Positions 3,720-57,340 of a stretch of 64,000 nt of DNA are shown here, piece after piece. A model generated the notes under the pieces. It worked only from the letters and a program-made list of their open reading frames with translations. It was not told where the DNA came from and searched no databases. Position 1 is the stretch's first letter. Every line of letters begins with the position of its first letter. Both the position numbers and the translations under genes were made by a program. The DNA is from a virus: positions 18,640 to 82,639 of IMG/VR virus record IMGVR_UViG_3300042402_003259; one strand, written 5' to 3'.

Positions 3720-4091
3720 TTAATTTTTAGGCCATCCACCTGCCCAATAATTATCTCCATAATGTATGAAGATTTCTTCGCCAGCATTGATCTTTCTTGA
3801 AGCATGAATGTAAATACCCTTTTTAGAAGTTGACCAATGAGCGTTATTATTATCGCTATGATTGTATAAAGATATATAACCTAACGCAATAACATAGTTG
3901 TTTTCCCCTTGAGGAAATGAAAAAACTATCTTTCTCAAATCTTCAGGAGTTTCTTTCCATTGACTTTTCCAACAACTACTAAATGGAGAATGTTCTATAA
4001 TTACTTGAGGAGCTATGTCTATCTTGGTGAATACGCCAAGACCTAGTGGAGTATCTTTAATTTCTAAAAAAGAAGAAATAAAATAATTCAT
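3720..4091 (-). CDS. SET-domain protein-lysine methyltransferase
   Basis: GLGVF, YNHSDNNN, I..GEEIFIHYG motifs. Confidence 0.88.
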   Translation of the reverse strand: MNYFISSFLEIKDTPLGLGVFTKIDIAPQVIIEHSPFSSCWKSQWKETPEDLRKIVFSFPQGENNYVIALGYISLYNHSDNNNAHWSTSKKGIYIHASRKINAGEEIFIHYGDNYWAGGWPKN

Positions 4092-7075: not shown

Positions 7076-7744
7076 TTAGATCCACAAAATATCCATGTGT
7101 TCTACAAATAATTGTAAACCTTGTGTCTTACGTTCGTTGTATTGCTCGCATTTCTTCATGTATTCATCCCAAGCTACTTTTTCTTCAATAGTTTTTTCTC
7201 TATTAAAGTAGTTTTTATCTTTAAGATCCCATTTAGTTGATGACTCTGGAAAAGGTAAATACTTATCAGGATCAATAATATAATCAAAAGCAAAAATAAT
7301 TTCATCCATGATGCGATCAATTTCTTTTTCAGCGATTTTTTCTGCTTTTCGCTGATCTTCTTCTGACAAAGAAGTATAGTCGTTAGGCAAAAATTTCATT
7401 GGAATACCCATTTTGCCTATCTTCTTGAGATATTGCAGACGAGGAACAATAAATTTAGCAATATTAGTTTCTAAAGAAAAAACATCATCATCAGAAACTC
7501 CATAACGAAACTTCTGATACTTACACTTTGCCCACCAACGCAATTCACACCAATTATGTTTGAAGCCCCATCCAAGTCGATAAGGCAGAAGATCAATAAG
7601 TTTGTCTACATATTTATTATATGTATAATAATTATTATCTTCTGGAAACAACTTATTTAATTCAGCTTCTTGATCATGCCAATGTTTAAGGCGTTTTTCT
7701 TTTTGTTCTGGCGTTTCGAAATCAAATTCAGTTTGATAGCTCAT
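7076..7744 (-). CDS. Conserved phage hypothetical
   Basis: I.PRL..K..G.P, MDEIIFAF, GLQLF pattern. Confidence 0.65.
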   Translation of the reverse strand: MSYQTEFDFETPEQKEKRLKHWHDQEAELNKLFPEDNNYYTYNKYVDKLIDLLPYRLGWGFKHNWCELRWWAKCKYQKFRYGVSDDDVFSLETNIAKFIVPRLQYLKKIGKMGIPMKFLPNDYTSLSEEDQRKAEKIAEKEIDRIMDEIIFAFDYIIDPDKYLPFPESSTKWDLKDKNYFNREKTIEEKVAWDEYMKKCEQYNERKTQGLQLFVEHMDILWI

Positions 7745-8124
7745 AGTGTTTTATTATAGTTTTCTATATAAGATTCAATATTCTTTTTACCAACAGGATT
7801 CATGCTATGCACGACATAAGGTGGATGTTTGATATTCTTTTCAAAAAAACAATAAGCTACCAACCATTTGGCGCAATCATATCCAGTCTTTTCTTTATAA
7901 GAATCATAAGGAATATCATCGTTATTTAATCCATGCCCATAATGAGAATCTGCTAGATCGTGATCGTAGCAGACGAACTTGGGAACTCCTCTAAGAGTTA
8001 TTAAGTCTACAAATTCCTTGTAGTTTCGTACAACAGAATAATGTTGATCGATTGGTACATTAGCCCAAGTTACATCGGTTGGGATGCGAATGTCATCAAG
8101 GAATAAATTATATTTACTTATCAT
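7741..8124 (-). CDS. Cyclic-phosphate-processing receiver (cREC)-like protein
   Basis: LFLDDIR, YDHDL, TGYDCAKW, VHSMNPVG motifs. Confidence 0.75.
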   Translation of the reverse strand: MISKYNLFLDDIRIPTDVTWANVPIDQHYSVVRNYKEFVDLITLRGVPKFVCYDHDLADSHYGHGLNNDDIPYDSYKEKTGYDCAKWLVAYCFFEKNIKHPPYVVHSMNPVGKKNIESYIENYNKTL

Positions 8125-8810
8125 AGTTCGAATGCGGCGATTGTATGCTCAAAAGGATTACCTTCAATATTCTTTACTAGACGCAACATCTCGGCGGCAA
8201 TTTCTCTAATCTCTTTTTGAGCGTCAGGCTTGTTACGCAAACTCAAGAAATGATAGAAAGAACGCCAATTAAACATAACATCAGCCTGAATTTGAGAGTT
8301 ATAAGTCTTGAAATAACGAGCAGATTCCTTGGCTCGCTTGCGACCAAGCACAGGCTCAAGATCCTTCAGAGCGGCATGATATAATCTGTTGCCAGCTTGC
8401 GTATACATTTCTAACACATCGGCCCAATTTTTGCCGGGAAAATTAAGTTGACTATTTACGTCAAGATTATTCGTGACTTCAATATTTTTCCAATCATCAG
8501 GAATCAAATACTTATCTTCTTTAATTTCTTTATAACGAGCGGATTCGCCATTAACAGATGTTCCAACTCGGTGTTTTATAATATGAATGTGACTAGCAAT
8601 ATCTGTATCAACTAAGAAGTGAAGAGAAGATTTTTCAAAAGGTGTGTGATGACCTGCATCAGCGAGCATTTTAAGAAGTTTAGGAATTCTATTAATCTTA
8701 TCTTCATTTAAATCTCTACTTGTAGAAGTCCAAGCTGAACAAGCATGAACTTGATCGCTACCGTAATAGCCAATTAACTGTACTTTATTATCATTCTTAT
8801 CGTTAATCAT
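8121..8810 (-). CDS. thyX: FAD-dependent thymidylate synthase
   Basis: GHHTPFE, KHR..SVNGESARY, ESAR, AQKEIR. Confidence 0.92.
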   Translation of the reverse strand: MINDKNDNKVQLIGYYGSDQVHACSAWTSTSRDLNEDKINRIPKLLKMLADAGHHTPFEKSSLHFLVDTDIASHIHIIKHRVGTSVNGESARYKEIKEDKYLIPDDWKNIEVTNNLDVNSQLNFPGKNWADVLEMYTQAGNRLYHAALKDLEPVLGRKRAKESARYFKTYNSQIQADVMFNWRSFYHFLSLRNKPDAQKEIREIAAEMLRLVKNIEGNPFEHTIAAFEL

Positions 8811-9604
8811 ATATCTAAAAATTTTTTAATTTCTAACTTACCGTTGCTGATAACTATATACTCATTTAGTCCATTGTCAATACAAAGATTATCGCAATCT
8901 GCTGGATTCAGATTGCCATCTAAATGATGAGGATTAACTCTACCATTTTTATGATAAGTGTGACCAACGATTTGTTTTAATCCTTCAATAGGCTGAAACT
9001 CTTGTTTGAAATCTAACCAAACAATTCCTCCACCTTTCTTAGGACCACCTCGGCTTCGGCCAGCAAAATAAAACCAATGATTTTGATCTGTCATTAAAGC
9101 AATGTTTGCGCGTTCTACTTCTTTCACAAGAAATAAACTGAGATCATCGTTATTTTTAACAGATGGATCTATGTAATCAGGAAATAATCCTGCATGAGTG
9201 CAAAGGATACCATCAACCCAAAAACGCCATTTAAATTTGTTAATGATGTTTTTGCGTTCAGATCCTAGCATTTCATCGATGGCAAAATACTTTCTATCTT
9301 CATAACCGCTACACATCGTATAATGATTATTAAATAGATAATGCAAATCATGATTACCAAAAAGAGTATAGTTATTTGGCGCAGATAGATATCGCATCAA
9401 ATAATCAGCGGTCTTTTTATAATCATCATTGTCATCCAAATAAAAACTATCAAACCAATCGCCAAGACAAATATTTATGTCCGCCGATTCGTGCTGAATA
9501 ATCTTATTGAACTTCTCAACGTTATTGTGAAGATCAGAAAGTATTACTATTTTCTTTTTGTGACTATCGAATGTCATTTCTAAATTGTGTTTTAAAAGGA
9601 TCAA
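8807..9604 (-). CDS. Calcineurin-like metallophosphoesterase
   Basis: SDLH, LGDWFD, GNHD, THAG, VGHT. Confidence 0.9.
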   Translation of the reverse strand: MILLKHNLEMTFDSHKKKIVILSDLHNNVEKFNKIIQHESADINICLGDWFDSFYLDDNDDYKKTADYLMRYLSAPNNYTLFGNHDLHYLFNNHYTMCSGYEDRKYFAIDEMLGSERKNIINKFKWRFWVDGILCTHAGLFPDYIDPSVKNNDDLSLFLVKEVERANIALMTDQNHWFYFAGRSRGGPKKGGGIVWLDFKQEFQPIEGLKQIVGHTYHKNGRVNPHHLDGNLNPADCDNLCIDNGLNEYIVISNGKLEIKKFLDI

Positions 9605-9952: not shown

Positions 9953-10369
9953 TTACTTGTCGTAGTCTATTTTTCCAATGACATTTATGCGAAAAGTATT
10001 AGTTACTTTTCCATCATTTGAGCTAGTGACAATGTAGCTTTCTTCTATCGTGCCGTCAAGAAAAAAAACGATTTTTGTTGCAGATGTTTCTATTATTTTT
10101 AAATCGTTAGTTATTGCGGCGAGTTCATCTGGATTTTCTATAGAGTTTATAGTATAATCTTCAGAAAAAGATAGCTCAGATTGTTTTTGATGATATGCTG
10201 CTTGATGACGTTTATTTATTAGAAAGGTTTTTAAATTCTCTCTAGCTTCCTGATATCTATTAGCGTTAAAAGAATCAAAGTTAATAACAAGAGCGGCGAT
10301 CAATGATAATAATATCACTGTCGCCAATACTATCTCTATAAGAGTAAATCCTTTAGATTTACCAGTCAT
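9953..10369 (-). CDS. Prepilin/pseudopilin-like protein (type IV N-methylation motif)
   Basis: MTGKSKG^FTLIEIVLATVILLSLIAALV class III signal with Glu at +5; GspH/FimT-like C-terminus (IVFFLDG). Confidence 0.85.
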   Translation of the reverse strand: MTGKSKGFTLIEIVLATVILLSLIAALVINFDSFNANRYQEARENLKTFLINKRHQAAYHQKQSELSFSEDYTINSIENPDELAAITNDLKIIETSATKIVFFLDGTIEESYIVTSSNDGKVTNTFRINVIGKIDYDK

Positions 10370-22496: not shown

Positions 22497-23201
22497 TTAG
22501 AAGTTCCAGCGAACACCAGCGACAGCAACGATGTCGCCGCTAAACTCTTGCGAAGCGAACTTGTACTTTGAAGCTGAGAAGTTGTTGTCATACCAACCGA
22601 CTTCAGCATAAGGCTGCAAGTGGTTGAAGAAAGTGCGAGATACGCCGATCTTTGCCGCGACAACATCATAATCAGTGAACTTACCATACTCTATTGCTGG
22701 AGTAACAGTGACCCATCCAAATACATCGGTTGGGCGTTCAACGCCAACGATATAACCAGATTGCTTTAGATTGAAATCATGTGAACCACGAATATAAGGA
22801 GTTAGATATGGATTGACCAAAGCAATCTTTGGGGCTAGTTCGATAGAATTACGACCACCAACAATTGAGCTTTGATGGCGTAGCAATTGTAGATCGCCAC
22901 GAAGAGAAAACTTCTCGGTAATCTTTAGAGCCTTGCCTACACCTACATTCCAGTGAGATTCATCGATGCTGTTAGAATCAGGAAGAATAACACCACCGAC
23001 ATAACCATCTACGCCAAAATAAGTTGATCCAATATCAAAACCAGCGAAACCTTGTCCGCTAGTCTTGGCTAGACCATTTACGATGTAGTGGTTGTTGTAG
23101 CCAGCATTAATACTGGCGCGAACTGAAGACTCAGTATCCGCAGCAAAAACTGCGACTGAGGCTAGAATTGACACGATGAATAACTTAAATGATTTAATCA
23201 T
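22497..23201 (-). CDS. Outer-membrane beta-barrel protein (TorF/TIGR02001-like)
   Basis: Sec signal (AVFA^A), alternating amphipathic beta strands, C-terminal beta-signal GVRWNF. Confidence 0.75.
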   Translation of the reverse strand: MIKSFKLFIVSILASVAVFAADTESSVRASINAGYNNHYIVNGLAKTSGQGFAGFDIGSTYFGVDGYVGGVILPDSNSIDESHWNVGVGKALKITEKFSLRGDLQLLRHQSSIVGGRNSIELAPKIALVNPYLTPYIRGSHDFNLKQSGYIVGVERPTDVFGWVTVTPAIEYGKFTDYDVVAAKIGVSRTFFNHLQPYAEVGWYDNNFSASKYKFASQEFSGDIVAVAGVRWNF

Positions 23202-23234: not shown

Positions 23235-23834
23235 TCAACAAGTTTTTTCAGAGTCTTCTAGCTCTCTAATATTTATTAATTTACCGACATATTTACCATC
23301 TTCTTGTCTGACTGCTATACATTTTGCACTGAAAGATCTATTTTTACTATCTACAATTATTATTTCGTGTTCAAAGTTTCTTTTATTTTCTATTGCTATT
23401 TGCCAGCTTTCATTTATTTCTGTTCTAGTATTTTCGCAAAGAGCATTGATCCAATTATTGTTTTCTAAATCTTTAAATAATCTATCAGTCAAACGTATCA
23501 TTGCGCTATTCGCCCAAGTAAAATTTCCGTTTTCATCTGTTTCAAATATCGGTTCTTCTCTATTATCTAATATCCATCTTTGTCGATAAAGAATTGTTTT
23601 AGTGGATAATTGAAGATCATTCATTTGATCTTTCAAGCTTTTACCGCCATTTGGTTTTAGTTCTTTAGAAATGTGTGATATTTCATTTTTAAGAACCGCT
23701 ATATCCGTAGTAATTGTTGTGAAAGGATGCAATTTTTTTAAAACATAAAACATATATCCGCAAAATGCTGTAATTACAACAATTGACGAGTTTATTTTAT
23801 TTATAGTTTCAATAATTTCTTTTAGCGTATCCAT
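23235..23834 (-). CDS. Single-TM protein with PAS domain (holin-associated type)
   Basis: TM at about aa 17-32, ELKPNGGKSLKD motif, PIFETDENG.FTWAN PAS signature. Confidence 0.7.
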   Translation of the reverse strand: MDTLKEIIETINKINSSIVVITAFCGYMFYVLKKLHPFTTITTDIAVLKNEISHISKELKPNGGKSLKDQMNDLQLSTKTILYRQRWILDNREEPIFETDENGNFTWANSAMIRLTDRLFKDLENNNWINALCENTRTEINESWQIAIENKRNFEHEIIIVDSKNRSFSAKCIAVRQEDGKYVGKLINIRELEDSEKTC

Positions 23835-23861: not shown

Positions 23862-25628
23862 TTAAACATTAGTAGAATCACTTTTTTTAACTCTTGAAGA
23901 TGGAAAACTTTTATTTCCAAAATCAGAACTATATAAACTATATAATCTCATTACGACTCCATGTTTAACAATAACGTCGCCAAGATCTTCTACTAAAACA
24001 TAATTAGGTCTATCATATTTAGCCATAACGTCAGAGCTAACTAATAAATGATTGCTTTCACCTGCATCCATAACTCTTTGAGCATAATTGATTCCATCGC
24101 CGCTTATATTTAAGTTACCGTTGATGTCTTCTAATGGACAAACATCGCCGCAGTGAACGCCCATTCTCATTTGTAGATCTTCTCTATTTTTTACAGCTTT
24201 TGCTACAGTAATGCCACAATTAATAGCATCTTCAAGATAAGTAAAGAATCCAAGAATCATGCCATCGCCTGTTGGTAAAACAATTAATTTTTCAAGAGCG
24301 TTGGCGGTTTTAAATTGGATGGTTGATTTGACTATTTCTCCTAAATCTTTAAATACTTTTCTTTGTTCATCAGTTGTTTTTTTACTGTATCCAACAATAT
24401 CCATGAAAAATATATAGCCATCTTGTATTTTATCCAATTCAAGGCGACTAGATTTAACTTCAGCATCAATCGCCGCAACTTGATTTATTATTTTCTTAGG
24501 TGCTTTTGGTGCTTCAACTTTTTTAATCTCTTCGACTTTCTTTTCTTCGACTGGTTTGTTTTTGCTTTTTAAAAATTCTTTCCAACTAATGGTCTTTTTA
24601 TCTTTTTTCTTTGGGTCTTTTGCGACTTCTTCTTCATGTATCTTTTTTAACTTAACTTCTTCTTCATTTCTTTTATCAATGTAAGCTTGCATTTGCTTTT
24701 TAAATTCTTCACTGATATGGATTGTAACGTCTTTGCCGCCACCTCCATTGTCGATTTTTTTCTTTCTTGCTGCTCCTTTTAATTGAAGCAGTGTTTGCAT
24801 TTTAATATTACCAGTTTTAAAAGCTAAATCTAAAGGAGCGATTTCACCTTTAAAGTCTGCACCATTAACATTAGCTCCTAGACAGATCAAAAATTCAACC
24901 ATTTCAATATCATTAGCATTAACTGCATAATGAATTGGCATCCATCCATTTTTATCATCGCGACCATTTATACGGCCATCAATATCAAAATACTTTTGAA
25001 CTCCTTCGAAGTCTCCCGTTTCAGCGCAAAAATGAATACTTGAGCCACCAGAAGACTTTGCTCCTGCTTTAGTTAGTATTCTTACTATTTCTCCTCTATT
25101 GCCTAAAGCTAATACGTCTATTGGATTATTCTTGCCTAAGAAGTCTTTAGCGTTAACATCTGCGCCTCTGAGTAATAAGTATTCTACAAGATGTTTTTGT
25201 CCGTAATGAACTGCATAATGCATAGCAGTCCAACCTTTTGCCGCATCTACTTCATTTAAAGTATTTCCTTTGTTCAACATTTCTTCAACAGAAACTATAT
25301 CTCCATTTTTAGCAGCTAAATGAAAACTACTACCGCTTCCGTATTTTGCACCACGTTTTTGAAGAACATCAACAATAGATAAAAAACCTTTTTGTTCTGC
25401 AATATCAAGTGCTGTGTTTTTACTTGTCCAGTCTTTGCAGTTAACGTCAGCACCATGATTTAATAGTAATTCGACAATCTCTTTATTATTCTCTGATACG
25501 GCAGCTATGAGAGGGGGATTTCCAGTGTCCTCGTCTCTTTCATTTATATTTACCTTATCTTTTACTATGCAATTATAAACATTATCGTATAAATTGCGAC
25601 GGATATGAGTAAAAATATTTATTGCCAT
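23862..25628 (-). CDS. Ankyrin-repeat protein fused to class III nucleotide cyclase
   Basis: Multiple G.T/PL..A ankyrin repeats, Lys/Glu-rich linker, FMDIVGYS, TGDG, RMGVHCG, GDGINYAQR. Confidence 0.88.
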   Translation of the reverse strand: MAINIFTHIRRNLYDNVYNCIVKDKVNINERDEDTGNPPLIAAVSENNKEIVELLLNHGADVNCKDWTSKNTALDIAEQKGFLSIVDVLQKRGAKYGSGSSFHLAAKNGDIVSVEEMLNKGNTLNEVDAAKGWTAMHYAVHYGQKHLVEYLLLRGADVNAKDFLGKNNPIDVLALGNRGEIVRILTKAGAKSSGGSSIHFCAETGDFEGVQKYFDIDGRINGRDDKNGWMPIHYAVNANDIEMVEFLICLGANVNGADFKGEIAPLDLAFKTGNIKMQTLLQLKGAARKKKIDNGGGGKDVTIHISEEFKKQMQAYIDKRNEEEVKLKKIHEEEVAKDPKKKDKKTISWKEFLKSKNKPVEEKKVEEIKKVEAPKAPKKIINQVAAIDAEVKSSRLELDKIQDGYIFFMDIVGYSKKTTDEQRKVFKDLGEIVKSTIQFKTANALEKLIVLPTGDGMILGFFTYLEDAINCGITVAKAVKNREDLQMRMGVHCGDVCPLEDINGNLNISGDGINYAQRVMDAGESNHLLVSSDVMAKYDRPNYVLVEDLGDVIVKHGVVMRLYSLYSSDFGNKSFPSSRVKKSDSTNV

Positions 25629-25629
25629 T

Positions 25630-26010
25630 TTAGTCTTGCTTCTTAAATCTACTGAGATCTAAGTTAGCAAGTGGCTTTTCGATATTTAATGATGCTAGTC
25701 TTTCGTTTTGAACCACTAACTTGCTGCCGCCCAAAACCTTTCCGTCAACAACATCGTATATGAAGAATACGGTCTTTGTTAAACCTACTCTGACTATTCT
25801 TCCAGGCTTACCATCGACATACACAACGTCATCTTCTTTATAATCATTTCCTACAAACATAAACAAAGCAGCCGCAAACTTTTCAATACTAGACTTAAAC
25901 ATTAAAGCTATAAGTCCCACAATAAATAACCAAACATATTTACCAGTCAAATCTTGACCAGTTGATTCTAATACTTGTTGCGATATAATCTGAACATCGT
26001 TTGTATTCAT
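25630..26010 (-). CDS. Truncated MscS-like membrane protein
   Basis: TM helices then YKEDDVVYVDGKPGRIVRVGLTKT, MscS beta-domain pattern. Confidence 0.6.
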   Translation of the reverse strand: MNTNDVQIISQQVLESTGQDLTGKYVWLFIVGLIALMFKSSIEKFAAALFMFVGNDYKEDDVVYVDGKPGRIVRVGLTKTVFFIYDVVDGKVLGGSKLVVQNERLASLNIEKPLANLDLSRFKKQD

Positions 26011-26095: not shown

Positions 26096-27055
26096 TTATT
26101 TAGTCCACTTTTGTTCTTTTAAAATATCATCAATCAAATCTTTTTCTGGTTTATCCATTTCTTTATCAAATCTCTTTAATACTTCGGTTAATGGATATAC
26201 TCTATCTGGAGATTCTTTTTGTTTTTCTTTAAGCTCTTGAATTACATCTACAATTTTAACAAGAGGAGATTTAAATTCATCGACCTTATCTTTTGTGGCA
26301 AAATTACACATTTCAAAAGCTTTGGGAGTTAAAGCCTTTAGAACTGAGATGATTGCCGATCCTAACATATTAAATATTGAAAATGCAGCACCAGCAGCAG
26401 GATGTACAGTTGCTAGAAGGCGAAGAATAACGAATACTACTACAAATACAATAATTGCAGTTAATGCGCTAAGTATAAACTTCTTTAACCCCCAAAATAC
26501 TGCATTAAGACCAAACATTCCGCTCATTGAGTCTAACACAGCTTTATTTTGATCAGCTTCTTTGGCTACTTCTTTAGCTTTATCGGTTAGTTGCCAGAGT
26601 TGATCGTCGTATTTTTCATTTAATTCTGACTTTTCTTTTTGAAGTTTATTGATTATTTCATCTCGCTGGGATAATAATTCTTCGCCTTTTTTGCGTTCTT
26701 CAGCAACTTGAGAATTTAATAGATCTACGGTGGCTTTAATTCTTTTTATTTCATCAATATGAGGTGAGCCGACAATAGAAATCACTCTTTCATTAAGAGC
26801 TTTAGCCGTATCTACTTGAACGGGCGGATTTGAAACTTGATTTAAAGAATGTTGAATGCCGATTGAAAGCCCTGAGGTTTGAATTCTCTTGCCTTTATCG
26901 TTCTTTTCCATCTCTACTAAAGTAGTATCTACTTTTTTCTCTTCTTTAGCGATAACTTTTTGATTGTCATCAATTTGTTTCGCTGGTCTTATAGTAGAGA
27001 AGCACCCAGTAAATAAAAAAACCAATATTATTAATATTGGTAGTTTGGTTGTCAT
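26096..27055 (-). CDS. Lipoprotein with coiled coil and internal TM (spanin-like)
   Basis: Lipobox LFTG^C, long coiled coil, hydrophobic segment about aa 193-215. Confidence 0.6.
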   Translation of the reverse strand: MTTKLPILIILVFLFTGCFSTIRPAKQIDDNQKVIAKEEKKVDTTLVEMEKNDKGKRIQTSGLSIGIQHSLNQVSNPPVQVDTAKALNERVISIVGSPHIDEIKRIKATVDLLNSQVAEERKKGEELLSQRDEIINKLQKEKSELNEKYDDQLWQLTDKAKEVAKEADQNKAVLDSMSGMFGLNAVFWGLKKFILSALTAIIVFVVVFVILRLLATVHPAAGAAFSIFNMLGSAIISVLKALTPKAFEMCNFATKDKVDEFKSPLVKIVDVIQELKEKQKESPDRVYPLTEVLKRFDKEMDKPEKDLIDDILKEQKWTK

Positions 27056-34947: not shown

Positions 34948-36096
34948 TTATTGACTAGCTTTTAGAAGAGCTTCTAGTTTACCATTTGGAGTTGTAATAC
35001 CACCAATAGCCGTAAAGATAGAAAGTCCTTCTTTAACTCCCTTATAAACACCTTGATGAACGGTGCTATTGGTCTTCAAGGTTCTATTCAATTGATTGAA
35101 AGCGTTGTCTAAATATTCTTGAGGAATATTGTCTAACGTTCTTTCATCACAAATCGCCACAGCAGCAGCGGTGCTACCAGTAGAAAGATCAAGCTCGCCG
35201 CAAAGAACATTTCTCTTGAGATTTTCGCGAACTGCTTTGCTGATTTCGGCTTCGCTACTATGATTAGTAATGTTAGCTGCACCAAAAACCATAATACCAG
35301 AATCGAGAACAGTTCTGAAATCATTTGTATCGAATGTACTATATTGACTATTCTTAGTAATGATGTTATTAAACAAGTGAAATAAAGAACAAATATTAGC
35401 ATTTGCTACTTGCCAGAACTTGTTTACAGAAAGTTTTGGATAAAGCGTATTGATTCTTTCGTTATCAAGAATAATAAGAGGAGAAACAATCTTCTGTTCT
35501 ACTAACTCACAAGCTTCCTTGAGTGTTTCATAAGCATTCTGACTGACTTTCTTGCCTTCAGAAAGCTTTGGTAGAGCGAGAATTAAGCCAACATAAGGAG
35601 AAGTGGCTTTCACTGTTGTCTGATATTCTTTTACGGTTTTTACTAGTTCGGCGCAAACACCTGCGCCAGTTCCGCCACCAGCACCAACTGTAACGAAAAT
35701 ACGATCAATATCTGTTCCGACAGAAGACTTGATAAAATCTACTACATCTTCTTTACTATTTAAGAAAGCTTGTTTAGCGAATTCTCTATTCTTACCAGCA
35801 CCTTGTTGTTCTCCAAACTTCATTTTGTTTGGCACGTTTATGGTAGCTAGATCTTGATCGGCTGTATTAATAACACCAACTCTAGCATATCCAATCTGAG
35901 AAAATGTTTCAGCTAGTTTTCCACCGCCTTGACCAGCACCAATAAATCCAAACTTAAAACCTACAGCATCTTTATCTTTTGGTTCTGGCTTTTCACTTTG
36001 AGGAGGCTCAGGAATATCTGGCATCGCAAAATCAAATGTGTCATTAGAAGATGGAGGGTTAGGGTTCACACCGTAAATAGGATTATGCTCATTCAT
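34948..36096 (-). CDS. Tubulin/FtsZ-family GTPase (PhuZ/TubZ-like)
   Basis: IGAGQGGG, INT, GAGK, signature GAGGGTGAG, LDN, FDTND. Confidence 0.9.
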   Translation of the reverse strand: MNEHNPIYGVNPNPPSSNDTFDFAMPDIPEPPQSEKPEPKDKDAVGFKFGFIGAGQGGGKLAETFSQIGYARVGVINTADQDLATINVPNKMKFGEQQGAGKNREFAKQAFLNSKEDVVDFIKSSVGTDIDRIFVTVGAGGGTGAGVCAELVKTVKEYQTTVKATSPYVGLILALPKLSEGKKVSQNAYETLKEACELVEQKIVSPLIILDNERINTLYPKLSVNKFWQVANANICSLFHLFNNIITKNSQYSTFDTNDFRTVLDSGIMVFGAANITNHSSEAEISKAVRENLKRNVLCGELDLSTGSTAAAVAICDERTLDNIPQEYLDNAFNQLNRTLKTNSTVHQGVYKGVKEGLSIFTAIGGITTPNGKLEALLKASQ

Positions 36097-36308: not shown

Positions 36309-38714
36309 TTATATTACACAAATATTGTTGTCTTTAATAGAAATTTCTAGATTTAGTTTCTTGTCTGAATCTAGCATCTTTTCCGCTACTTGTGTTTGAA
36401 GTTCGCGTTGAATAGTTTTGATAACCTGTCTTGCGCCAAAGTTGTTAAATTGAATTTTATTAAATATAAAATCAGTTACTTCTGATGAATATTTTATAAT
36501 CACATTTCTTTCTATCAAATCTGATTTAAAAGATTGCAGTTCTTTATCTATAATTAGTTTGATCTGTTCTTGCTCAAGAGAATCGAAAATAATTATTTCA
36601 TCAATGCGATTCAATAAATCAGGAGGAAAATGTTTTTTAATAGAAGATAAAACGTCTGATTTACCAGCCTTTTGCTTTCCAAAACCAATCGAAGAATGAT
36701 TAACCACTTCTGCTCCGACATTCGTAGTCATAACAATCATCGTGTTTGAAAAGTCAACGGTCTTACCAGAAGAATCGGTTATCTTGCCTTCTTCAAGTAT
36801 TTGTAACAAAGAATACAAAACGTCTTCATCAGCTTTTTGTATTTCATCAAATAGAATTAAAGAGTATGGATTTTTTCTAACCTTTTCAGTTAATACTCCA
36901 CCTTTATCAAATCCAATATAACCGGGACTAGATCCAACTAGTTTATTTACGGCGGTCTTGTCTGTGTATTCAGACATATCAATTGTTATAAAATTGTTCT
37001 TATTAATGAATAATGTTTCAGCAATTATCTTTGCAGTCATTGTCTTGCCAACACCCGTTGGTCCAGCATAAAGCATTGAACAAATGGGTTTATTTGGATT
37101 GCGGAAACCAGCTTTCGCTCTGATTAAAGATTTATATATATGTTCAATTTGATTATCTTGACCAAATACTTGTTCTTTTAGCTTAATTTTAAGCAATTTA
37201 ACTTTATCAAAGTCTTGTAATTCCAAATCATCAATTGGAATATTAGTTTTATCAGAGACGACTTCTAAAATATCGGTGTTTGTGACTTGATATCTATTAT
37301 TACGCCAATTAGTAATCATCTTTTTTGTAGACTCTTCATACTCAACCAATAGCTCTTCTAAAGAAGAAATCTTTTTCTTCTCTATTGTTTGCTTATTAGA
37401 ATCTACAAATTTACTGAGTTTCTTTTCTATCTTAAGCATTTCAGGAGACTTTACAAAGTTCTTTAATTTAACTTTAGCTCCTACTTGATCAATAATGTCT
37501 AAAGCTTTGTCAGGAAATCTTCCTTCAATATACTTTTCAGCACTATTAATAATAAAATGAATAACATCATCAGAGAAATCTATTACATGAAAATTTTCAT
37601 ATCCGCCTTTAATATTCTTGATTAGATTGAAGGTTTGTTCTTTTGTGGGTTCTTCAATTTTAATAATCTGAAAACGCCTAGATAAAGCTGGGTCATCAGA
37701 TATAGTCTTCTTGTATTCGTCAAAAGTGGTAGCACCAATGCAGCTAATTTCTCCTCTGGCTAAATAAGGCTTTAGAATATTAGCAACATCGTTGCCATTT
37801 TCTGGATTTCCAGCACCAATGATCGTGTGAATTTCATCGATAAATAAAACTATATACGGATCATCTGTAATTTCTTTTAATAGATTCTTAATTTTTTCTT
37901 CAAACTCACCACGGAATTTGCAACCAGCAATCATCATTGGAATATCTAAGCTGTAAATCTGCTTTAAACTAAGCAAATCAGAAGCTTCACCTTTAACGAT
38001 GGCTTGAGCCAATGATTCAACTAGTGCAGTTTTACCAACACCGGCTTCACCTACAATAAGTGGATTATTTTTATTTTTACGACAAAGGACTTCTGAGATC
38101 TTTTGAATTAATTCTTTATTAAGATGCAGATTATTTATCTTACCATTAACAACTTGTATATTAAGATTATTAGCGTAAGTATTTAAAACTTTATACTTCT
38201 TTATATCAAAAGTTTGTTTCGCTTCATTAGGAACGTTTGTTTCCTCCTCAACGCTTGGCAACATATCATCATCTTCTAGTTTTTGCTCAACATAGTCCAC
38301 GACTTTAACAAAATCATAATTATAATCAATCAAGTAAAGTTCAAAAGTCTGATTAGGAACTTCAAACAAACTTAAAAATACATGTTCTAATCCGATGTAT
38401 TTATGATCGAATTTAGAAGATATAGTTTTGGCGCATTTAAAAACATTAGTTACACCTTCAGATAATAAAGGCTTTAACGTAGCTTTCTTTTGTGCTGGAA
38501 CATTAGCTTTTAGAAATGCTATGGCACTATTCTTTATCTTTAAAGAATCTATACCGAAATTTCCAAATGCTTCTTCTATCTGACTTTGCTTAAGATTCAA
38601 AAAGCTTATAAACAAATGAAGATGCGTGATCTCTGTGTGTTTGAGATCTACAGCTATTTTATAAGCTTCTTTGATTAGCTTTTGCGCTCTTGGTGTTAAA
38701 TTTAAATTTTTCAT
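36309..38714 (-). CDS. clpC: Clp/Hsp100 ATPase, ClpC/ClpA-like
   Basis: Clp-N repeats, [30 protein letters not shown] loop. Confidence 0.85.
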
Positions 38715-41263
38715 TCTATGTCAGATAACTTCATGTAGATCTTGTCGTCCAAGATTCCGATGTTCTCTATCCATAGCACATCGTCACCCTTTCTGCCAGT
38801 GAAAACTACAATACTTTCCTTATCTGGAATTTTAAGACCGTCTTCAAGATACTCTGTTAATCTTTGGTGTTTTCCACCATCTAAAAACATCGCACTTACG
38901 CTGCCAACTTCATCTTTCAATTGGAATCTATAGAATGTAGAATTAGACTTTTTAGTTTTGCCCTTATAAACATCATCTATCACTCCAACCATCTTTACTC
39001 TGTCTTCTTTAAAAGCAGATTGAAATTCCATTGTATCTGTAAACGTACACTCAGATTGCTGAAAAATAGTCTTTAGTCGAATAGTTGGAGTGTAACCTAA
39101 GAGCCTATTTTCAAAGACCCAATTAGCAAACTTCTCATGATTCTTGTTTTGCTCGTAGATCTTTTTATACTCATCGTACTTTTTTCTGAATGTTATTTTA
39201 CGCTTTTCATTCATGAATGGTTTACCATTCTCATTAAGAGATTGTGCTTTAAAAGCGCATTCACTTACAATAGTTAAAATATCGTAATCATATTTAGGCC
39301 CAACACTGCAAGCGAATTTCTTTTCTTTATCAGTTAAGATGTTGAAAGTTTGAGCTTCAAGAACTAAGCGTGATCTTCTATGAGTATATGAACTTAGAGT
39401 TCCAGCTTGAATCAAAGAAGAAAGTAGACCAATATTAATACCAGCTTGTTTAGCGGCGATAAAAATATCGAACTTTGTTGGAGTGTTTGTCTCTCTAAAG
39501 CTTTGAAGAGCTTGCAACGTCTTTTCAGAAACACCCTTAATAGAGTTCAATCCAAAACGAATATTTCCATCTTCAATCTTAAAATCTAATGCAGACTTTG
39601 CTAGATCAGGAGGTAGAAGTTTGATATCAAAATATACTAGCTCTTTTGAAATCTTGTTAATTTCTTGATGTGAATCAGGCTCATATTTAGACAACTGAAG
39701 CAATGCCAAGAAAAATTCATGTGGATACTTGAATTTTAGATAAGCAGTCCATGCAGCCAAAATAGCATAAGAGATAGAGTGAGATTTATTAAACGAATAG
39801 TTCGCTGAGTCTTCAGCTACTTTCCACAATACATCGCCAATCGCAGGATCAAGATTCTGTTCGGATACTTTCTGACGAATCTTTCCTTGCCATGCTGGCA
39901 TTTGATCCACCTTCTTTTTACCAACGATACGTCGCAACTGCTCTGACTCATCAAGAGTGAATCCCAAACGCACAGCCATCTTCATCAACTGCTCTTGATA
40001 AAGAGGAATGCCACCAGTATATGAAAGCTCTTCTTTAAAGAAATCGTGAACAAGCTGGAATACTCCTGAAGCTGAATATGTAGCATACTGATCAGCGAAA
40101 TCCAATGCGCCGGGACGAGCAATAGCAACTACCGCACTAAGCTGTTCAAGAGACTTGGGCTTAACTTTACGGCATACCTTGAAGTTGGTTTCCGCTTCAA
40201 TTTGGAATAGACCTTGTGGAGTACGAAGATTCTGAAAGCTTTCATAAATGAAAGGATCTTCTGGATCAATAGAAGTCATTTCAATATTCAGTCTCTTGCA
40301 AACTTCGCTGACTACAGTCAAAGTTCTCAAGCCAAGAACATCGAACTTAACCATTAGTTCGGCTACATAATTCATATCATAGCCGCTAACTAAATCACCA
40401 TCAGAAGTCTTTTGAACTGGGCAAACTTCTTCGATCTTATAATAAGAAATAGCAATACCAGAAGGATGAACACCAGTATTCTTATTCAACCCTTCAATCT
40501 TCTTAGCTATTTCAAATACGAATTTATTTTGATCAACCCAAGCTTTAAATTTATCATTAGCTTTATACGCTTCTTCTAAATCAAAAACCCGTCCAAACAG
40601 TTTGGGAATATTGTCGCTAACTTCATTTACGTCTGTTTCTGATAAAGCACCAACAATCTTTCCGCACTCTTTAATACAAAGCTTACTAGAAAGAGTATTG
40701 AGAGTTAAGATCTTCGATGTTTTGCCTAGATGTTTCTGCTCAATATACTTAATCACTTCTGCGCGTCTATCATAGCTAATATCGTTATCTACGTCAGGAA
40801 GAAGTGAACCATCAAGATAGGTAATATCATCTTTGATAATCTTCTTAGCGCGAGAACGGCTAACGAAACGCTCAAAGAATAGTTCATATTTTATGGGATC
40901 AACTTTCGTAACACCCACGATAAACAAAACCAAAGAACCCGCAGCACTACCACGACCAGCACCAGTTGGAATATTATTTTCATGGCAGTAATTAAGAATA
41001 TCCCAGTTGAGAAGTACATAATCAACGAAATCAAGCTCTCTGAAGATTTCCAGTTCCATCTCCATACGCTCAACATATTGATTATTGTTTAATCCTAAAT
41101 TATTTAAACTCCTATAACAAAGTGTCTTAAGGAATGTAAAATTATCGGAAGAAATAGGAATCTTCAGTAAATCATAATATTTACCTTCAATAGAGATTTG
41201 AGGCAAGCGAACGCCGGGAAGCATGGCGTTATCATAAGTTTTAATGTCTTGTAAAAAATTCAT
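38711..41263 (-). CDS. dnaE: DNA polymerase III alpha catalytic core (no PHP domain)
   Basis: GRGSAAGSL, PDVDND, KFDVLGL, YSFNKSH, HhH, OB fold. Confidence 0.93.
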   Translation of the reverse strand: MNFLQDIKTYDNAMLPGVRLPQISIEGKYYDLLKIPISSDNFTFLKTLCYRSLNNLGLNNNQYVERMEMELEIFRELDFVDYVLLNWDILNYCHENNIPTGAGRGSAAGSLVLFIVGVTKVDPIKYELFFERFVSRSRAKKIIKDDITYLDGSLLPDVDNDISYDRRAEVIKYIEQKHLGKTSKILTLNTLSSKLCIKECGKIVGALSETDVNEVSDNIPKLFGRVFDLEEAYKANDKFKAWVDQNKFVFEIAKKIEGLNKNTGVHPSGIAISYYKIEEVCPVQKTSDGDLVSGYDMNYVAELMVKFDVLGLRTLTVVSEVCKRLNIEMTSIDPEDPFIYESFQNLRTPQGLFQIEAETNFKVCRKVKPKSLEQLSAVVAIARPGALDFADQYATYSASGVFQLVHDFFKEELSYTGGIPLYQEQLMKMAVRLGFTLDESEQLRRIVGKKKVDQMPAWQGKIRQKVSEQNLDPAIGDVLWKVAEDSANYSFNKSHSISYAILAAWTAYLKFKYPHEFFLALLQLSKYEPDSHQEINKISKELVYFDIKLLPPDLAKSALDFKIEDGNIRFGLNSIKGVSEKTLQALQSFRETNTPTKFDIFIAAKQAGINIGLLSSLIQAGTLSSYTHRRSRLVLEAQTFNILTDKEKKFACSVGPKYDYDILTIVSECAFKAQSLNENGKPFMNEKRKITFRKKYDEYKKIYEQNKNHEKFANWVFENRLLGYTPTIRLKTIFQQSECTFTDTMEFQSAFKEDRVKMVGVIDDVYKGKTKKSNSTFYRFQLKDEVGSVSAMFLDGGKHQRLTEYLEDGLKIPDKESIVVFTGRKGDDVLWIENIGILDDKIYMKLSDIE

Positions 41264-41889
41264 ATTTCAATTTGCCAAAGCTGCTTCTGAAAAATCTTAA
41301 AATTCATCTGAACGTCGTACATGGAATTGTGAAGCATATTCTCATCGAAGTCAATCTTATATTCTTTCAATTGAGTTTTAATGCTTGTCTTTAAACCTTT
41401 CTCACGAAAGTCATTTAATCTATATTGCCAAAAAGTAAAATCAGAATCTCTTTGAGGTTTTAAATTCTTTTTAATAGCTTTGGCTAGACAATTTGTATCT
41501 ATTATTCTCTTTACATAAGAGAAGTCGCTCTTCTTGCCCATTAATTTTCTGTATGTATTATGAATATATACATCAAATCCAAGAAGATTCTGTCCTATAA
41601 TAAGGTATTGATCGTCATAGATATAGTCTTCAAAAGCTGCCAAAACTTCTTTTGGATCGGCGGCTAATGAATGGTATTTACGCTCATCAAAATGAGTAAC
41701 TAGCTTTGCGCCTTCAGAAAGCTTCAAATCAGGCCAATAGATATGATTGTCTACTTCTTTAATTATGTTACTTCCTTTTGCAATTAAATAACTTAATTGC
41801 CAAGGCTTATTGCTATCATCAAGTAGATTTAGATGACAGGTTTCGAAATCGAAACAAATATACTTTTGTTCTTTATTAAATCGTAGCAT
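41260..41889 (-). CDS. DEDDh 3'-5' exonuclease (epsilon-like)
   Basis: DFET, QN..GFD, IDT, H.SMYDV. Confidence 0.88.
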   Translation of the reverse strand: MLRFNKEQKYICFDFETCHLNLLDDSNKPWQLSYLIAKGSNIIKEVDNHIYWPDLKLSEGAKLVTHFDERKYHSLAADPKEVLAAFEDYIYDDQYLIIGQNLLGFDVYIHNTYRKLMGKKSDFSYVKRIIDTNCLAKAIKKNLKPQRDSDFTFWQYRLNDFREKGLKTSIKTQLKEYKIDFDENMLHNSMYDVQMNFKIFQKQLWQIEI

Positions 41890-42634
41890 TTTCTTCCTTC
41901 CAAGCTTCGAAGCTGAATTTGTCGCTGCAAAAATGAGGTAGTTCTGGTTTCTCCAAAGAACGATCTTTACCGAAAGATCGATTACAGATTATCTTATAAG
42001 CCATAAAAGCTTTGACATCTGATTTCTTGTTGTAATAGATACTTCGAACTTTAACCATTGGCAGATCATTGTTTGTAGAGAATTCTCTGACCTTCTCCTC
42101 AAGTATATAATCTAAAGCTAGATCGTTCTGCTCATAGAACAATGTAGCTTTTGTAAAAGACAAATCTGGCACCGCGTTTCCAAAAGAAAGATTGTTTATA
42201 TAAATAAACGAATCATAAAAAGGAATAGCGAGCTTGAGAGAGTTTTCATTCCACAACTCTTTCAACTCGCTATAACTTAGAAATCCAGAATTAGCGCAAA
42301 AAGCTTTTGAATATATTTTATTCAGAAGTTTGCACCCAATATCATCTTTGGCGAAGATGATTACTTTATGTTGACTGCCTTCATCTTCTGGAAGAGCAGA
42401 GTTTCTCATTGAAAGTCTAAGACCAAATATTAATTGAATACCCATTTCTTTGCTGCGCTTGTACGCTTCAAAGAATCCAATCAATGAGTCTTCGACTAAA
42501 ATGATTTGTTTTAGACCGTTATCTTTAGCGATTTTAAATACGCTATCTGATCCTCCTTCAGTAACTTTCTTGGGATCATCTAAAGTTAGTATAGATTTTC
42601 CTATACTAAAGTGTGACTTGAACAATGGCAGCAT
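41876..42634 (-). CDS. Stand-alone PHP domain of Pol III alpha
   Basis: SHFSI..S.L, I..IFG, IIFAK...G...L.KI.S, matching DnaE N-terminus. Confidence 0.82.
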   Translation of the reverse strand: MLPLFKSHFSIGKSILTLDDPKKVTEGGSDSVFKIAKDNGLKQIILVEDSLIGFFEAYKRSKEMGIQLIFGLRLSMRNSALPEDEGSQHKVIIFAKDDIGCKLLNKIYSKAFCANSGFLSYSELKELWNENSLKLAIPFYDSFIYINNLSFGNAVPDLSFTKATLFYEQNDLALDYILEEKVREFSTNNDLPMVKVRSIYYNKKSDVKAFMAYKIICNRSFGKDRSLEKPELPHFCSDKFSFEAWKEENATI

Positions 42635-53891: not shown

Positions 53892-54479
53892 TTATTTATT
53901 TTTAAAAATCACCAAAAGTCCTCTTTGGCACCTTTCATAAGGCAAAGAGTTTTTATTAAAAAGATAATGATGCAAGTTTCTTTCTTTGCATTTTTCATAT
54001 ATCGATCTTAAATTTATAAAGCTATCTTCAATTAAATTTATATCATGATAAATTAATATTCCATTCTGTTCAAGAATATTATCATAAACATATTCGAACC
54101 ATTCGTCTGTATGATGATGATCTGCGTCACTCATTATAAAATCATATTTTTCTTTAGTTGAAAAAATAAAATCTTTTTCATTTGACGTTATTAGTTTTAT
54201 ATCATTTTTATATTTAGCATTTATGTCTTCTGGCATTGTGCCTCCCCAATCTATCCAATTATCAACAACTGTAATAGATACGTTATTTGAATTTATTTTT
54301 GAAGCTTGCAAAATTGCATCAAGGCTTCTTCCTCCTCCAATTCCTAATTCTAGAATTTTTTCTGGTTTATGACTTAAAACAAGTCCATATAAAAAATATG
54401 CATGAACCACATCTATTTTTACGAATTCATTATCATTAAATCCCATATGAATTGTATAGTTATTTTTATTTTTCTCCAA
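53892..54479 (-). CDS. SAM-dependent methyltransferase (Methyltransf_24-like)
   Basis: ILELGIGGG, DFIMSDADH, G.LIYHD. Confidence 0.8.
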   Translation of the reverse strand: MEKNKNNYTIHMGFNDNEFVKIDVVHAYFLYGLVLSHKPEKILELGIGGGRSLDAILQASKINSNNVSITVVDNWIDWGGTMPEDINAKYKNDIKLITSNEKDFIFSTKEKYDFIMSDADHHHTDEWFEYVYDNILEQNGILIYHDINLIEDSFINLRSIYEKCKERNLHHYLFNKNSLPYERCQRGLLVIFKNK

Positions 54480-54957
54480 AAATCATGAAAGAATTATTTA
54501 AATCAACTTGCGAAAAATATATATTTTGATACCCTTTGTCTTCCATGTAGTCTTTTATAATAAAAGGAGAAAATATATTAACATGTTTTTTGTTATTCCA
54601 AGGTCTCCAGTACACTTGAGAATAGTCTGGCAAATATAAAAATAAAATTCCTTCTTTTTTTAATGTGTCGTGCCAGTAATCCATAACTTCAACCCAGTTT
54701 GTAATATGTTCTAGGCAATGACTAGAAAATATATAATCTATATTTTTTTCTGGAAGATTTAAGGCGTGATATCCATTGTTAAACGAAAGATCTATTGGTA
54801 TAGAATCTGGAAAAGCCCATTCTTTTTTCATACATCCTATATCATATCCAATTCCTTTGCAAACTTGTTTAGCAAAAGGTATAGCAAATTGAGCAGCGTT
54901 TCCTGTGGATTGAAATTTAGGATAGCATTTATTTTTAAAATTAATTGTTTCTATCAT
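54466..54957 (-). CDS. SAM-dependent methyltransferase
   Basis: GYDIGC, DYIFSSHCLEH, LKKEG.L.L.LP. Confidence 0.8.
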   Translation of the reverse strand: MIETINFKNKCYPKFQSTGNAAQFAIPFAKQVCKGIGYDIGCMKKEWAFPDSIPIDLSFNNGYHALNLPEKNIDYIFSSHCLEHITNWVEVMDYWHDTLKKEGILFLYLPDYSQVYWRPWNNKKHVNIFSPFIIKDYMEDKGYQNIYFSQVDLNNSFMIFGEK

Positions 54958-54959
54958 GG

Positions 54960-55661
54960 TTAATAATTATAAAGTTGATTGTAGTCCATTTTCATTGTTT
55001 CTGGTTTATTTCCGTTTCCATATTGACATGGGCCAGCGTAATGAATGAAATCAGCTTTATACCTTTCATTATTTAAATCAGGCTTTCCAAGATGCATTCT
55101 GTTAAAACGATAGTCTATAGATTTAAACGGAATTTTATTTTTTGCTATCCAGTAATTTACAATTGTTTGTTCTCCAAAATACCATATATCGGGCCAGTTT
55201 GGAATGTCAGATAAATCAAAAGCTGATTTAAAATTATCAAAAGTATTTTTAGAAAAAATCATAACTCCGGCATTGAAGTATTGCTTTTTATTTTTATTAT
55301 TTATGGGCCATTGTATTTTAGAAATCTTTTCATGAATATAGCTATCTCTATTCATACATTCAGTATTGTCGTTTTCATCAAAAGCGTAAAAAATATTTAA
55401 TTCATCGTAAATATTAAAAATGTTTTCTGCTTTTGGTGTTATCATTATATCCGCATCAAGATAAAGAACTCTATCGTATCCTTGGTTGAAAAGAGAAAAC
55501 AATTGATATTTCTCAAACATTATATGAGGTCCATTAATTAATGCATTTTGTGATATAAAATAATCTATATCATTTTTTTTAGAATAATCTATTACACTTT
55601 TTATGCAATACTCTTGACCTCTGGAAGGGCCTATTAAAAATTGAAAAATTGCTGTTTTCAT
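54960..55661 (-). CDS. GT-A glycosyltransferase (GT8/GT34-like)
   Basis: VLYLDAD, YFNAGVM, EQT..N, FIHYAG. Confidence 0.85.
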   Translation of the reverse strand: MKTAIFQFLIGPSRGQEYCIKSVIDYSKKNDIDYFISQNALINGPHIMFEKYQLFSLFNQGYDRVLYLDADIMITPKAENIFNIYDELNIFYAFDENDNTECMNRDSYIHEKISKIQWPINNKNKKQYFNAGVMIFSKNTFDNFKSAFDLSDIPNWPDIWYFGEQTIVNYWIAKNKIPFKSIDYRFNRMHLGKPDLNNERYKADFIHYAGPCQYGNGNKPETMKMDYNQLYNY

Positions 55662-56647: not shown

Positions 56648-56650
56648 ATT

Positions 56651-57340
56651 TTATGTAAATCGTTTAAAGTTCATTTCAATCCAACTATTATAATCGAAAA
56701 CCACGTTTTCAATACTTGAATAGCTTGGAGTTTGGTTAGCTAATATAACATTAGATATAAAAGTGTTAGTTTGTTTCTGATATGTTTTTGCCATAAAAAC
56801 ATCCATATTTTCATAGTTTTCAATTAAATATTCAAATCCACTTTTTCCATAACCTAGAAAATCAAATATTTTTTCTATACCTTGGTAGGAAAAAGAAACA
56901 GAGTGTAAACAATGAGCTGATTTTAATCTGTGTAGATTTATACTATATTTTTCAATAGGATTAATTCCGTATTCGTCTGTTAAATTTGCTCCAAAAAATA
57001 AAGAGTCCCAATCGTCAGGTAATTCAGAAATGCATGTATTTATTTTTTTAAAAAGATTTTCTTTATCTAGAGTGAAATTAAAATCATCTTCTAATATTAA
57101 AACGTTTTGAAGTTTATCTGTTTTAATTTTTTCAAAACATTTATAAAAAGAAAGAGCGCATCCTATTTGGCCTAACCTTTTTTTGTCAAAATGATCAGCG
57201 GAAATTTTATAGCCGTTAAATCTTTCATAATTTTTAATTTCGTATTTATCGAAATTTAAAACACATTGGTTCCATCTATCTTCTCTTTCTGGTAAATTTA
57301 TGCAAAACACTTTTTCATATTGATCGAATGGGTTTTTCAT
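56651..57340 (-). CDS. GT25-family glycosyltransferase
   Basis: CINL..R.DR, GQIGCALS, LILEDD. Confidence 0.85.
   Translation of the reverse strand: MKNPFDQYEKVFCINLPEREDRWNQCVLNFDKYEIKNYERFNGYKISADHFDKKRLGQIGCALSFYKCFEKIKTDKLQNVLILEDDFNFTLDKENLFKKINTCISELPDDWDSLFFGANLTDEYGINPIEKYSINLHRLKSAHCLHSVSFSYQGIEKIFDFLGYGKSGFEYLIENYENMDVFMAKTYQKQTNTFISNVILANQTPSYSSIENVVFDYNSWIEMNFKRFT

Follow-up and report, generated by a model that had tools for sequence, protein, structure and literature searches.

Cyclic mononucleotides have a central place in bacterial physiology, and recent work shows that they act in anti-phage immunity as well. To our knowledge, cyclases encoded by phages are almost unstudied. 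The closest enzymes of known structure to the protein described here are soluble bacterial class III adenylyl cyclases, namely Rv1900c/LipJ (PDB 1ybt, 1ybu), Ma1120 (4wp9, 5d0e), Rv1264 (1y10, 1y11) and the Ruegeria pomeroyi protein 3mr7. In Ma1120, K101 and D157 form the substrate-specifying pair, according to the accessible part of the source (PMC4215837). A further point of comparison is Pycsar, a host system which, in the portion of its description that was available, combines a pyrimidine cyclase (PycC) with a cyclic nucleotide monophosphate (cNMP)-binding effector that carries a TIR or transmembrane (TM) domain; PycC has class III motifs, forms a metal-dependent head-to-tail dimer and plays a role in phage-host conflict (PMC11224242). 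Here, we describe a gene of a large, uncultured lake-water phage in which ankyrin repeats are fused to a class III cyclase-homology domain (CHD). The gene is one open reading frame (ORF) within a stretch of 64,000 nt of IMG/VR record IMGVR_UViG_3300042402_003259, and this whole stretch is referred to as the window.

The ankyrin-cyclase fusion is a real gene of this phage (Table 1). Its reading frame of 588 amino acids contains no internal stop, and it is not a chance ORF, because at least 114 homologue clusters share its six key residues, the median ratio of nonsynonymous to synonymous substitution rates (dN/dS) is 0.05, and the CHD was modelled with a predicted local distance difference test score (pLDDT) of 94.3. 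The N-terminal module consists of tandem 33-residue ankyrin repeats, which Pfam matches in several stretches over residues ~20-290 (Ank, E 5.1e-35, 118 bits; Ank_2, E 1.6e-34, 118.8 bits), and in a 28-row alignment (A2) it falls into three blocks, each closed by a G-A-K...G-S turn. In the full protein, PF00211 (Guanylate_cyc) matches residues 478-564 with 25.1 bits against a cut-off of 21.9, and the score rises to 28.7 bits when the last 194 amino acids are scanned alone.

The AlphaFold2 model of the CHD was built on a second alignment (A1) of 50 sequences, comprising the window CHD, 12 homologues from phages and 37 short cellular sequences. With a predicted template modelling score (pTM) of 0.90, the modelled domain has the class III cyclase fold. 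The first Foldseek matches in the PDB were a eukaryotic guanylyl cyclase (3et6, E 3e-11) and Rv1900c (1ybt, E 7e-11). The top VIA-align matches (Z 19.9-19.0, root-mean-square deviation [rmsd] 2.0-2.6 Å over 152-167 residues) were Rv1264, Ma1120, Rv1900c and guanylyl cyclases, and every one of the 50 entries listed (Z 19.9-17.1) is an adenylyl or guanylyl cyclase. Searching the PDB with the A1 profile gave 17 sequences at E ≤ 0.01, led by 3mr7 (3.9e-12) and followed by Rv1900c and Ma1120. The solved soluble adenylyl cyclases introduced above therefore share the fold of the phage CHD (Z 18-20, rmsd 2.0-2.6 Å) and are also its closest PDB sequences, with the metal-binding Asp residues and the conserved Arg and Lys in common, and the Asn/Arg pair is as in 3mr7. 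However, their identity to the phage CHD is only 16-26%, and both the ankyrin fusion and the phage origin set it apart from them.

Table 1. Positions in the window of the ankyrin-cyclase gene, its domains, key residues and upstream neighbours.
Feature	Position	Strand	Description and basis
Ankyrin-cyclase gene	23862..25628	(-)	ATG start, 588 aa plus stop, intact; ankyrin repeats, linker, class III CHD
Ankyrin-repeat module, residues 1-290	24759..25628	(-)	Pfam Ank, Ank_2, Ank_3, Ank_4, Ank_5; alignment A2
Lys/Glu-rich low-complexity linker, residues 291-394	24447..24758	(-)	~100 residues; least conserved part (sequence, alignment A2)
Class III CHD, residues 395-588	23865..24446	(-)	PF00211 match, AlphaFold2 model, structural matches
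D410, first metal-binding Asp (FMDIVG)	24399..24401	(-)	HMMER alignment to solved cyclases; invariant in A1, A2
L451 (LPTGDG), position of adenine-selecting Lys (Ma1120 K101)	24276..24278	(-)	HMMER alignment, Ma1120 chain numbering
D455, second metal-binding Asp (PTGDG)	24264..24266	(-)	HMMER alignment to solved cyclases
R488 (LRMG), conserved class III Arg	24165..24167	(-)	Invariant in A1, A2
N507 (NISGD), position of adenine-selecting Asp (Ma1120 D157)	24108..24110	(-)	HMMER alignment, Ma1120 chain numbering
N514...Q517-R518 (INYAQR), transition-state Asn/Arg pair, with Q517 at the Ma1120 A167 position	24075..24089	(-)	HMMER alignment, A2
K555 (VKHG), conserved Lys near the CHD C-terminus	23964..23966	(-)	Invariant in A1, A2
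Upstream 126-aa gene	25630..26010	(-)	One long predicted membrane helix plus small beta domain; stop 1 nt upstream of the ATG of the cyclase gene
319-aa gene, second upstream	26096..27055	(-)	Lipoprotein-like signal (LFTGC), long helical region, hydrophobic segments

Judged from motifs taken directly from the translation, with codon positions checked, the catalytic set of the CHD looks complete. D410, D455, N514 and R518 align with their counterparts in 3mr7 in the HMMER alignment, in agreement with an earlier note on this DNA that had reported both metal-binding Asp residues and the N..R pair as intact. These four residues are invariant throughout A1 and A2, as are R488 and K555, which we take to have their usual class III role as phosphate binders. 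It might be argued that the CHD is a pseudoenzyme that just binds a nucleotide or scaffolds a dimer, with the ankyrin module as the working part, and the weak PF00211 match, the missing canonical base-selecting pair (see below) and the lack of any characterised subfamily member in our literature searches would fit such a role. However, phage and cellular members alike keep all residues needed for catalysis, with strong purifying selection, and since a dead enzyme is not expected to keep every catalytic residue, we consider a pseudoenzyme very unlikely.

The positions that contact the base differ from those of the solved enzymes. L451 aligns with the Lys of IVKTTGDG in 3mr7 and of VVKSQGDG in Ma1120, and N507 aligns with the Asp of D-I-F-G in 3mr7 and of D-L-F-G in Ma1120. 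These are the K101 and D157 sites of Ma1120, because the residue count along its chain matches the numbering in the accessible part of the source (PMC4215837). Neither the Lys/Asp pair of adenylyl cyclases nor the Glu plus Cys or Gly of guanylyl cyclases is present, and Leu at the Lys/Glu position and Asn at the Asp/Cys position, as read in the earlier note, are confirmed. At a third pocket position, Q517, invariant in A1 and A2, replaces A167 of Ma1120, which is the third residue exchanged in the 'KDA to EGY' mutant (PDB title, 5d0h).

This Leu/Asn pair is a trait of a large cellular subfamily and is not peculiar to the phage protein. When the CHD was searched with HMMER against 1.84 billion cluster representatives, 5455 of them matched at E ≤ 0.001, including 511 with E ≤ 1e-30, and identity was 38-49% for the best cellular matches. 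The six key positions, taken from the phmmer alignment, read D-L-D-N-N-R in 114/114 close homologues (P0003-P0116) and in all seven domain rows of P0117-P0122; among the 151 domain rows of 149 further representatives (P0123-P0271), 123 have D-L-D-N-N-R, 18 have D-I-D-N-N-R and 10 have other combinations. In P0117 (960 aa, on a 3-Mb contig), a Ser/Thr kinase precedes a tandem pair of cyclase domains that each read D-L-D-N-N-R. A genome scan with one genome per species yielded at least 633 confirmed stretches, and taxonomy and architecture were taken from the best 77 loci. According to their record titles, 58 of these are from Verrucomicrobiota (Chthoniobacterales, Udaeobacter and others), 17 from Acidobacteriota, one from Armatimonadota and one from a record labelled Heliomicrobium. 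Some metagenome-assembled genomes (MAGs) contain several of the 77 loci, and the link to a cyclase family expanded in Verrucomicrobia, made in the earlier note, is thereby supported.

The domain architectures of these cellular relatives differ from that of the phage protein. The CHD begins no more than 50 residues from the N-terminus in 69/77 cellular genes, and an N-terminal extension of at least 300 residues is present in six. Pfam was run on 67 of the 77 genes, leaving out 10 that are cut at the locus end, and found TPR_2 in 48 genes, Pkinase in seven, and TIR_2 and AAA_35 in two each; ankyrin families were not among the 25 commonest families in these genes, and the 22 unlisted families have at most two members each. 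Scanned singly, 49 representatives showed CHD-TPR, kinase-CHD(-TPR), CHD-WD40, CHD-trypsin, CHD-hydrolase and pPIWI-nuclease-CHD arrangements, with ankyrin-CHD in two of them, P0127 and P0131. The nearest cellular proteins, which are CHD-TPR and Ser/Thr-kinase-CHD proteins of Verrucomicrobiota and Acidobacteriota, are 38-46% identical to the phage CHD across the whole domain and share with it D-L-D-N-N-R and the subfamily-specific invariant residues. However, their CHD is N-terminal and followed by TPR (48/67) or lies behind a kinase (7/67), whereas the phage CHD is C-terminal to the ankyrin module. Since the Leu/Asn pair is the subfamily norm, a non-standard product cannot be inferred from it, contrary to what these residues had first suggested, and since the pocket (Leu451, Asn507, Gln517) is that of a biochemically unassigned bacterial subfamily, the product is not readable from the sequence.

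On balance, we think it somewhat probable that the protein works as a dimeric class III cyclase, producing a 3',5'-cyclic mononucleotide inside infected cells and binding a partner through its ankyrin module. It would be a cytoplasmic two-module enzyme with a catalytically competent CHD. Two copies would pair head to tail, as in all class III cyclases, D410 and D455 would hold two divalent metals, and a nucleoside triphosphate would be converted to the 3',5'-cyclic mononucleotide and pyrophosphate. We infer that the ankyrin module (~290 aa) might place or gate the enzyme via a protein partner from either host or phage, and the receiver of the cyclic nucleotide would most likely be a host protein. 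By likeness to the relaxed-specificity mycobacterial cyclases only, cAMP, perhaps with side products, would be the most likely output; presumably, cAMP is the main product even of those members of that group whose pairs are non-canonical, such as Rv1900c (Asn/Asp) and Rv0386 (Gln/Asn).

Several observations weigh against an active cyclase of this kind. The PF00211 match is weak (25-29 bits), and the full protein aligns only with profile positions 93-180, which correspond to the C-terminal half. The purine-selecting Lys/Asp or Glu/Cys pair is absent from the CHD, and ATP or GTP as substrate is therefore an assumption. A phage-encoded receiver for the cyclic nucleotide was not found either in the window or in five related phage records: the cNMP-binding family PF00027 had no match among the 53 window ORFs scanned (at least 90 aa, E ≤ 0.01), which include the neighbours of the cyclase, no GAF domain was found in the same ORFs, and both PF00027 and PF01590 (GAF) gave no match in the five related records, two of which are rated complete and each of which carries exactly one CHD. 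Finally, literature searches found no measured activity for any member of the Leu/Asn subfamily, and full-text searches found no paper on a phage ankyrin-cyclase fusion or on a Leu/Asn class III cyclase. One in vitro assay would give the product both for the phage enzyme and for the whole subfamily (511 representatives at E ≤ 1e-30), and would also reveal whether the phage rewires host signalling with its own messenger.

The favoured reading and its rivals overlap in part and are not all mutually exclusive. In one rival reading, the enzyme would be active while its Leu/Asn/Gln pocket either selects a nucleotide other than ATP or GTP, such as CTP or UTP, or shows broad promiscuity, so that the phage would have its own non-canonical signal. 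This would be consistent with two purine-selecting positions that are both non-canonical and strictly conserved (114/114; 123 of 151 rows, with Ile in 18 more), with an invariant Gln at the third position, with the lack of a classical cAMP or cGMP receptor domain in the five related phage records, and with the existence of pyrimidine cyclases of the same fold, as described in the available portion of PMC11224242. In that portion, the pyrimidine-selecting residues are Y50/D94/R97 in BcPycC, F100/R142/Q144 in EaPycC and F60/K104/F109 in AnPycC (PMC11224242). However, in a comparison made only by counting from the metal-binding Asp residues, the phage CHD has F408, L451, T453 and I458. By this count neither -4 nor -2 is occupied by Arg, Lys or Gln, and only the aromatic residue at -2 (F408) is common to the phage CHD and the PycC residues given there. 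Further, the best matches in both sequence and structure are adenylyl and guanylyl cyclases, and Rv1900c and Rv0386, which we take to make mainly cAMP, also have non-canonical pairs. We therefore regard a non-canonical product as unlikely.

Class III motifs are common to the phage CHD and to PycC, but Pycsar, as far as its description was accessible, is a host system with a cNMP-binding TIR or TM effector (PMC11224242), and no such partner was found in the window or in the five related phage records. PADLOC matches to the cyclase protein at E ≤ 1 were to ankyrin-type models only (PDC-M72A, Ankyrin and MzaA). Presumably, PADLOC includes PycC models. PycC chains were also absent from the Foldseek rows shown, the 50 VIA-align entries and the PDB profile matches at E ≤ 0.01; for the two fold lists, such an absence is compatible with a relationship. 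Because no effector partner was found there, the residues differ by count and the PADLOC matches are of ankyrin type, we do not class the cyclase as Pycsar, and with adenylyl and guanylyl cyclases as its best matches the Pycsar-type link raised in the earlier note is not upheld.

A related possibility is that the enzyme acts in counter-defence by disturbing host cyclic-nucleotide immunity, whether Pycsar-like or related, e.g., by flooding the cell with a competing nucleotide. Conflict-type domains do occur on some cellular members of the subfamily, including TIR_2 (2/67), AAA_35 (2/67), a pPIWI-associated nuclease (P0136) and a trypsin-like protease (P0156), and phages attack such signalling by means of nucleases, according to the accessible part of the source (PMC9117128). 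However, no Pycsar-type architecture adjoins the gene and its PADLOC matches are those given above, an activating nucleotide would be expected to trigger rather than block an abortive-infection effector, and no target system can be named, the host not being established. Counter-defence is thus highly improbable in our view.

The window itself is phage DNA, as the earlier note had assumed. Its G+C content is ~28-39%, nearly all genes are on the minus strand, and PHROG matches include rIIA, rIIB, a virion structural protein (phrog_1645, E 2e-144), a DnaE-like DNA polymerase, primase, helicase, a UvsX-like recombinase, ribonucleotide reductase, dUTPase and dCMP deaminase. None of the GenBank phages is close to the window. 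Only seven of 50,697 GenBank phage records match the ankyrin-cyclase protein, all through the ankyrin part (query residues 14-286), and the cyclase domain was found in no isolate. The long form, as in the window, was found in 75 IMG/VR loci and in no fewer than 114 metagenomic protein clusters. Short forms (~480-510 aa), to which P0131 belongs, have a CHD 53-58% identical to that of the window and were found in 40 IMG/VR loci with P0119 as query and 41 with P0131, mostly on the same contigs of up to 200 kb; the ankyrin-CHD protein P0127 was not used as a query.

None of the 77 nearest cellular genes has the ankyrin-CHD fusion; all examples found come from viral contigs and belong to two large-phage groups that have diverged from each other. 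The earlier note had named an ordinary cAMP synthase with common homologues of the same architecture as a refuting case; such homologues are indeed common, but only in phage contigs and not in cells. A partial protein with 81% identity (P0041) is labelled as from a Verrucomicrobiota MAG and is encoded on a 5.6-kb contig that may be a mis-binned phage fragment. Other viral genomes also encode the class III fold, as shown by 10 BFVD matches at E ≤ 0.001 that include the Harvfovirus 'response regulator' A0A3G5A2G3, the uncultured Caudovirales proteins A0A6J5RWB7 and A0A6J5KRX6, and pandoravirus proteins. However, these are only 12-22% identical to the phage CHD and have receiver, predicted transmembrane sensor or kinase architectures, with ankyrin repeats seen in none of them.

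In a quick maximum-likelihood tree of 27 long-form, 31 short-form and 77 cellular CHD rows, all 58 phage rows lie on one side of a branch that separates them from the 77 cellular rows (Shimodaira-Hasegawa-like approximate likelihood ratio test 100), in a tree made with a short search and a midpoint root and for which the tool warned of long branches meeting. The simplest reading is that a cellular CHD was captured once, became fused to ankyrin repeats and was then inherited over a long time within a family of large aquatic phages. Both modules are maintained, given that median dN/dS is about 0.05 in each: for pairs with dS 0.1-2 among 35 distinct full-length gene sequences (Nei-Gojobori), it was 0.046 for the ankyrin module and 0.052 for the CHD, with 0.087 for the linker.

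Near-identical DNA is present in 14 lake or freshwater metagenome runs from 2016-2024, nine of which are marked as possible sources of this very DNA. The gene is intact, under strong purifying selection and common to both of the diverged phage groups, whose large aquatic members reappear in lake metagenomes over years. In a freshwater RNA library (X15), contigs of the gene are 85-99% alike and cover 25 of 30 bins; two others (X16 and X17) each contain a single contig of 231 nt and a further one (X18) a single contig of 203 nt, with 0 or 1 differences. These contigs are a weak hint that the gene is transcribed, as DNA carry-over is possible in libraries that lack DNA controls.

The gene neighbourhood raises the possibility of an envelope-linked module, in which the cyclase would work with the 126-aa MscS-like protein and the 319-aa lipoprotein encoded upstream, e.g., in sensing or timing envelope events such as superinfection or lysis, while the ankyrin module would dock onto the membrane protein. 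Of the 75 long-form loci, 68 carry the 126-aa gene and 65 the 319-aa lipoprotein gene, in a conserved order, while the genes downstream vary (PAS in 3, OMP in 9, HNH in 6). The stop codon of the 126-aa gene and the start of the cyclase are separated by 1 nt, a homologue of the 126-aa protein is encoded in all four fusion-carrying related records rated complete (G001, G002, G006 and G007), and one lies near the fusion gene in 34 of 70 locus entries of the short-form phages. However, in these short-form phages it is often on the other strand and the order differs, in G002 it is ~15 kb from the fusion gene, and G008 (rated 88% complete) has the fusion without any match to the 126-aa gene. For these reasons the link between the two genes is suggestive rather than firm. 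Ferredoxin-like, OMP and HNH genes recur in the region as well, the whole of which is syntenic, and linkage may therefore reflect shared ancestry alone. The likeness of the 126-aa protein to the MscS beta domain is below the Pfam threshold (E 0.01-0.02 in 21/21 members; 15.4 bits against a cut-off of 20.2), PF00924 is present in 33% of the members of its Atlas cluster, and its AlphaFold2 model is poor (pLDDT 54.4); the 319-aa protein has no Pfam match. An envelope-linked role is, in our judgement, quite unlikely.

In two related phages (IMG/VR loci L006 and L012), the gap between the small membrane gene and the ankyrin-cyclase gene is ~940 bp, against 1 nt in the window, and an extra gene has apparently been inserted there. 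Two genes lie directly downstream of the cyclase in the window, one for a 199-aa PAS protein (23235-23834, minus strand; PAS_9, E 1.3e-7), the other for a 234-aa protein whose N-terminus is signal-like and which weakly resembles OMP beta-barrels (22497-23201, minus strand; E 4e-4). Both are variable cargo, being found in 3/75 and 9/75 related loci, respectively.

More broadly, one could imagine that cyclases with the Leu/Asn/Gln pocket form a distinct class that makes a nucleotide other than cAMP and cGMP, or a mixture, and that widespread large aquatic phages captured one of them and fused it to ankyrin repeats as the source of a private messenger. Its receptor would be neither of the cyclic-nucleotide-binding (CNB) nor of the GAF type, and the system might be tied to the MscS-like protein or to the silencing of host cyclic-nucleotide immunity. 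We consider this wider scheme doubtful at best.

Several other genes of the window were also noted, and those from the receiver-domain protein to the polymerase genes below are all on the minus strand. A 127-aa protein (7741-8124) matches PF20274 (cREC_REC, 'cyclic-phosphate processing receiver domain'; 74.3 bits, E 1.3e-20), and two genes away, with ThyX between, is a calcineurin-like phosphoesterase (8807-9604; Metallophos, E 1e-9); the two could be a pair for RNA-end or cyclic-phosphate processing. A tubulin/TubZ-like GTPase is encoded at 34948-36096 (PF00091, E 1.3e-11; TubZ-like C-terminal domain, E 1.8e-4), a 123-aa SET-domain protein at 3720-4091 (PF00856, E 4.7e-11), and a 138-aa protein with a prokaryotic N-terminal methylation motif, like that of type IV pilins, at 9953-10369 (PF07963, E 7.2e-5). 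The replicative polymerase, DnaE-like and of the pol III alpha type, is apparently split from a PHP-domain gene and an exonuclease-subunit-like gene (38711-41263, 41260-41889 and 41876-42634). Finally, the G+C content of the window is lowest (0.276-0.278) at 54000-58200, where glycosyltransferase and methyltransferase genes (GT8, GT25, GT1 and Methyltransf_23/24) follow one another in what may be a surface-sugar modification island.

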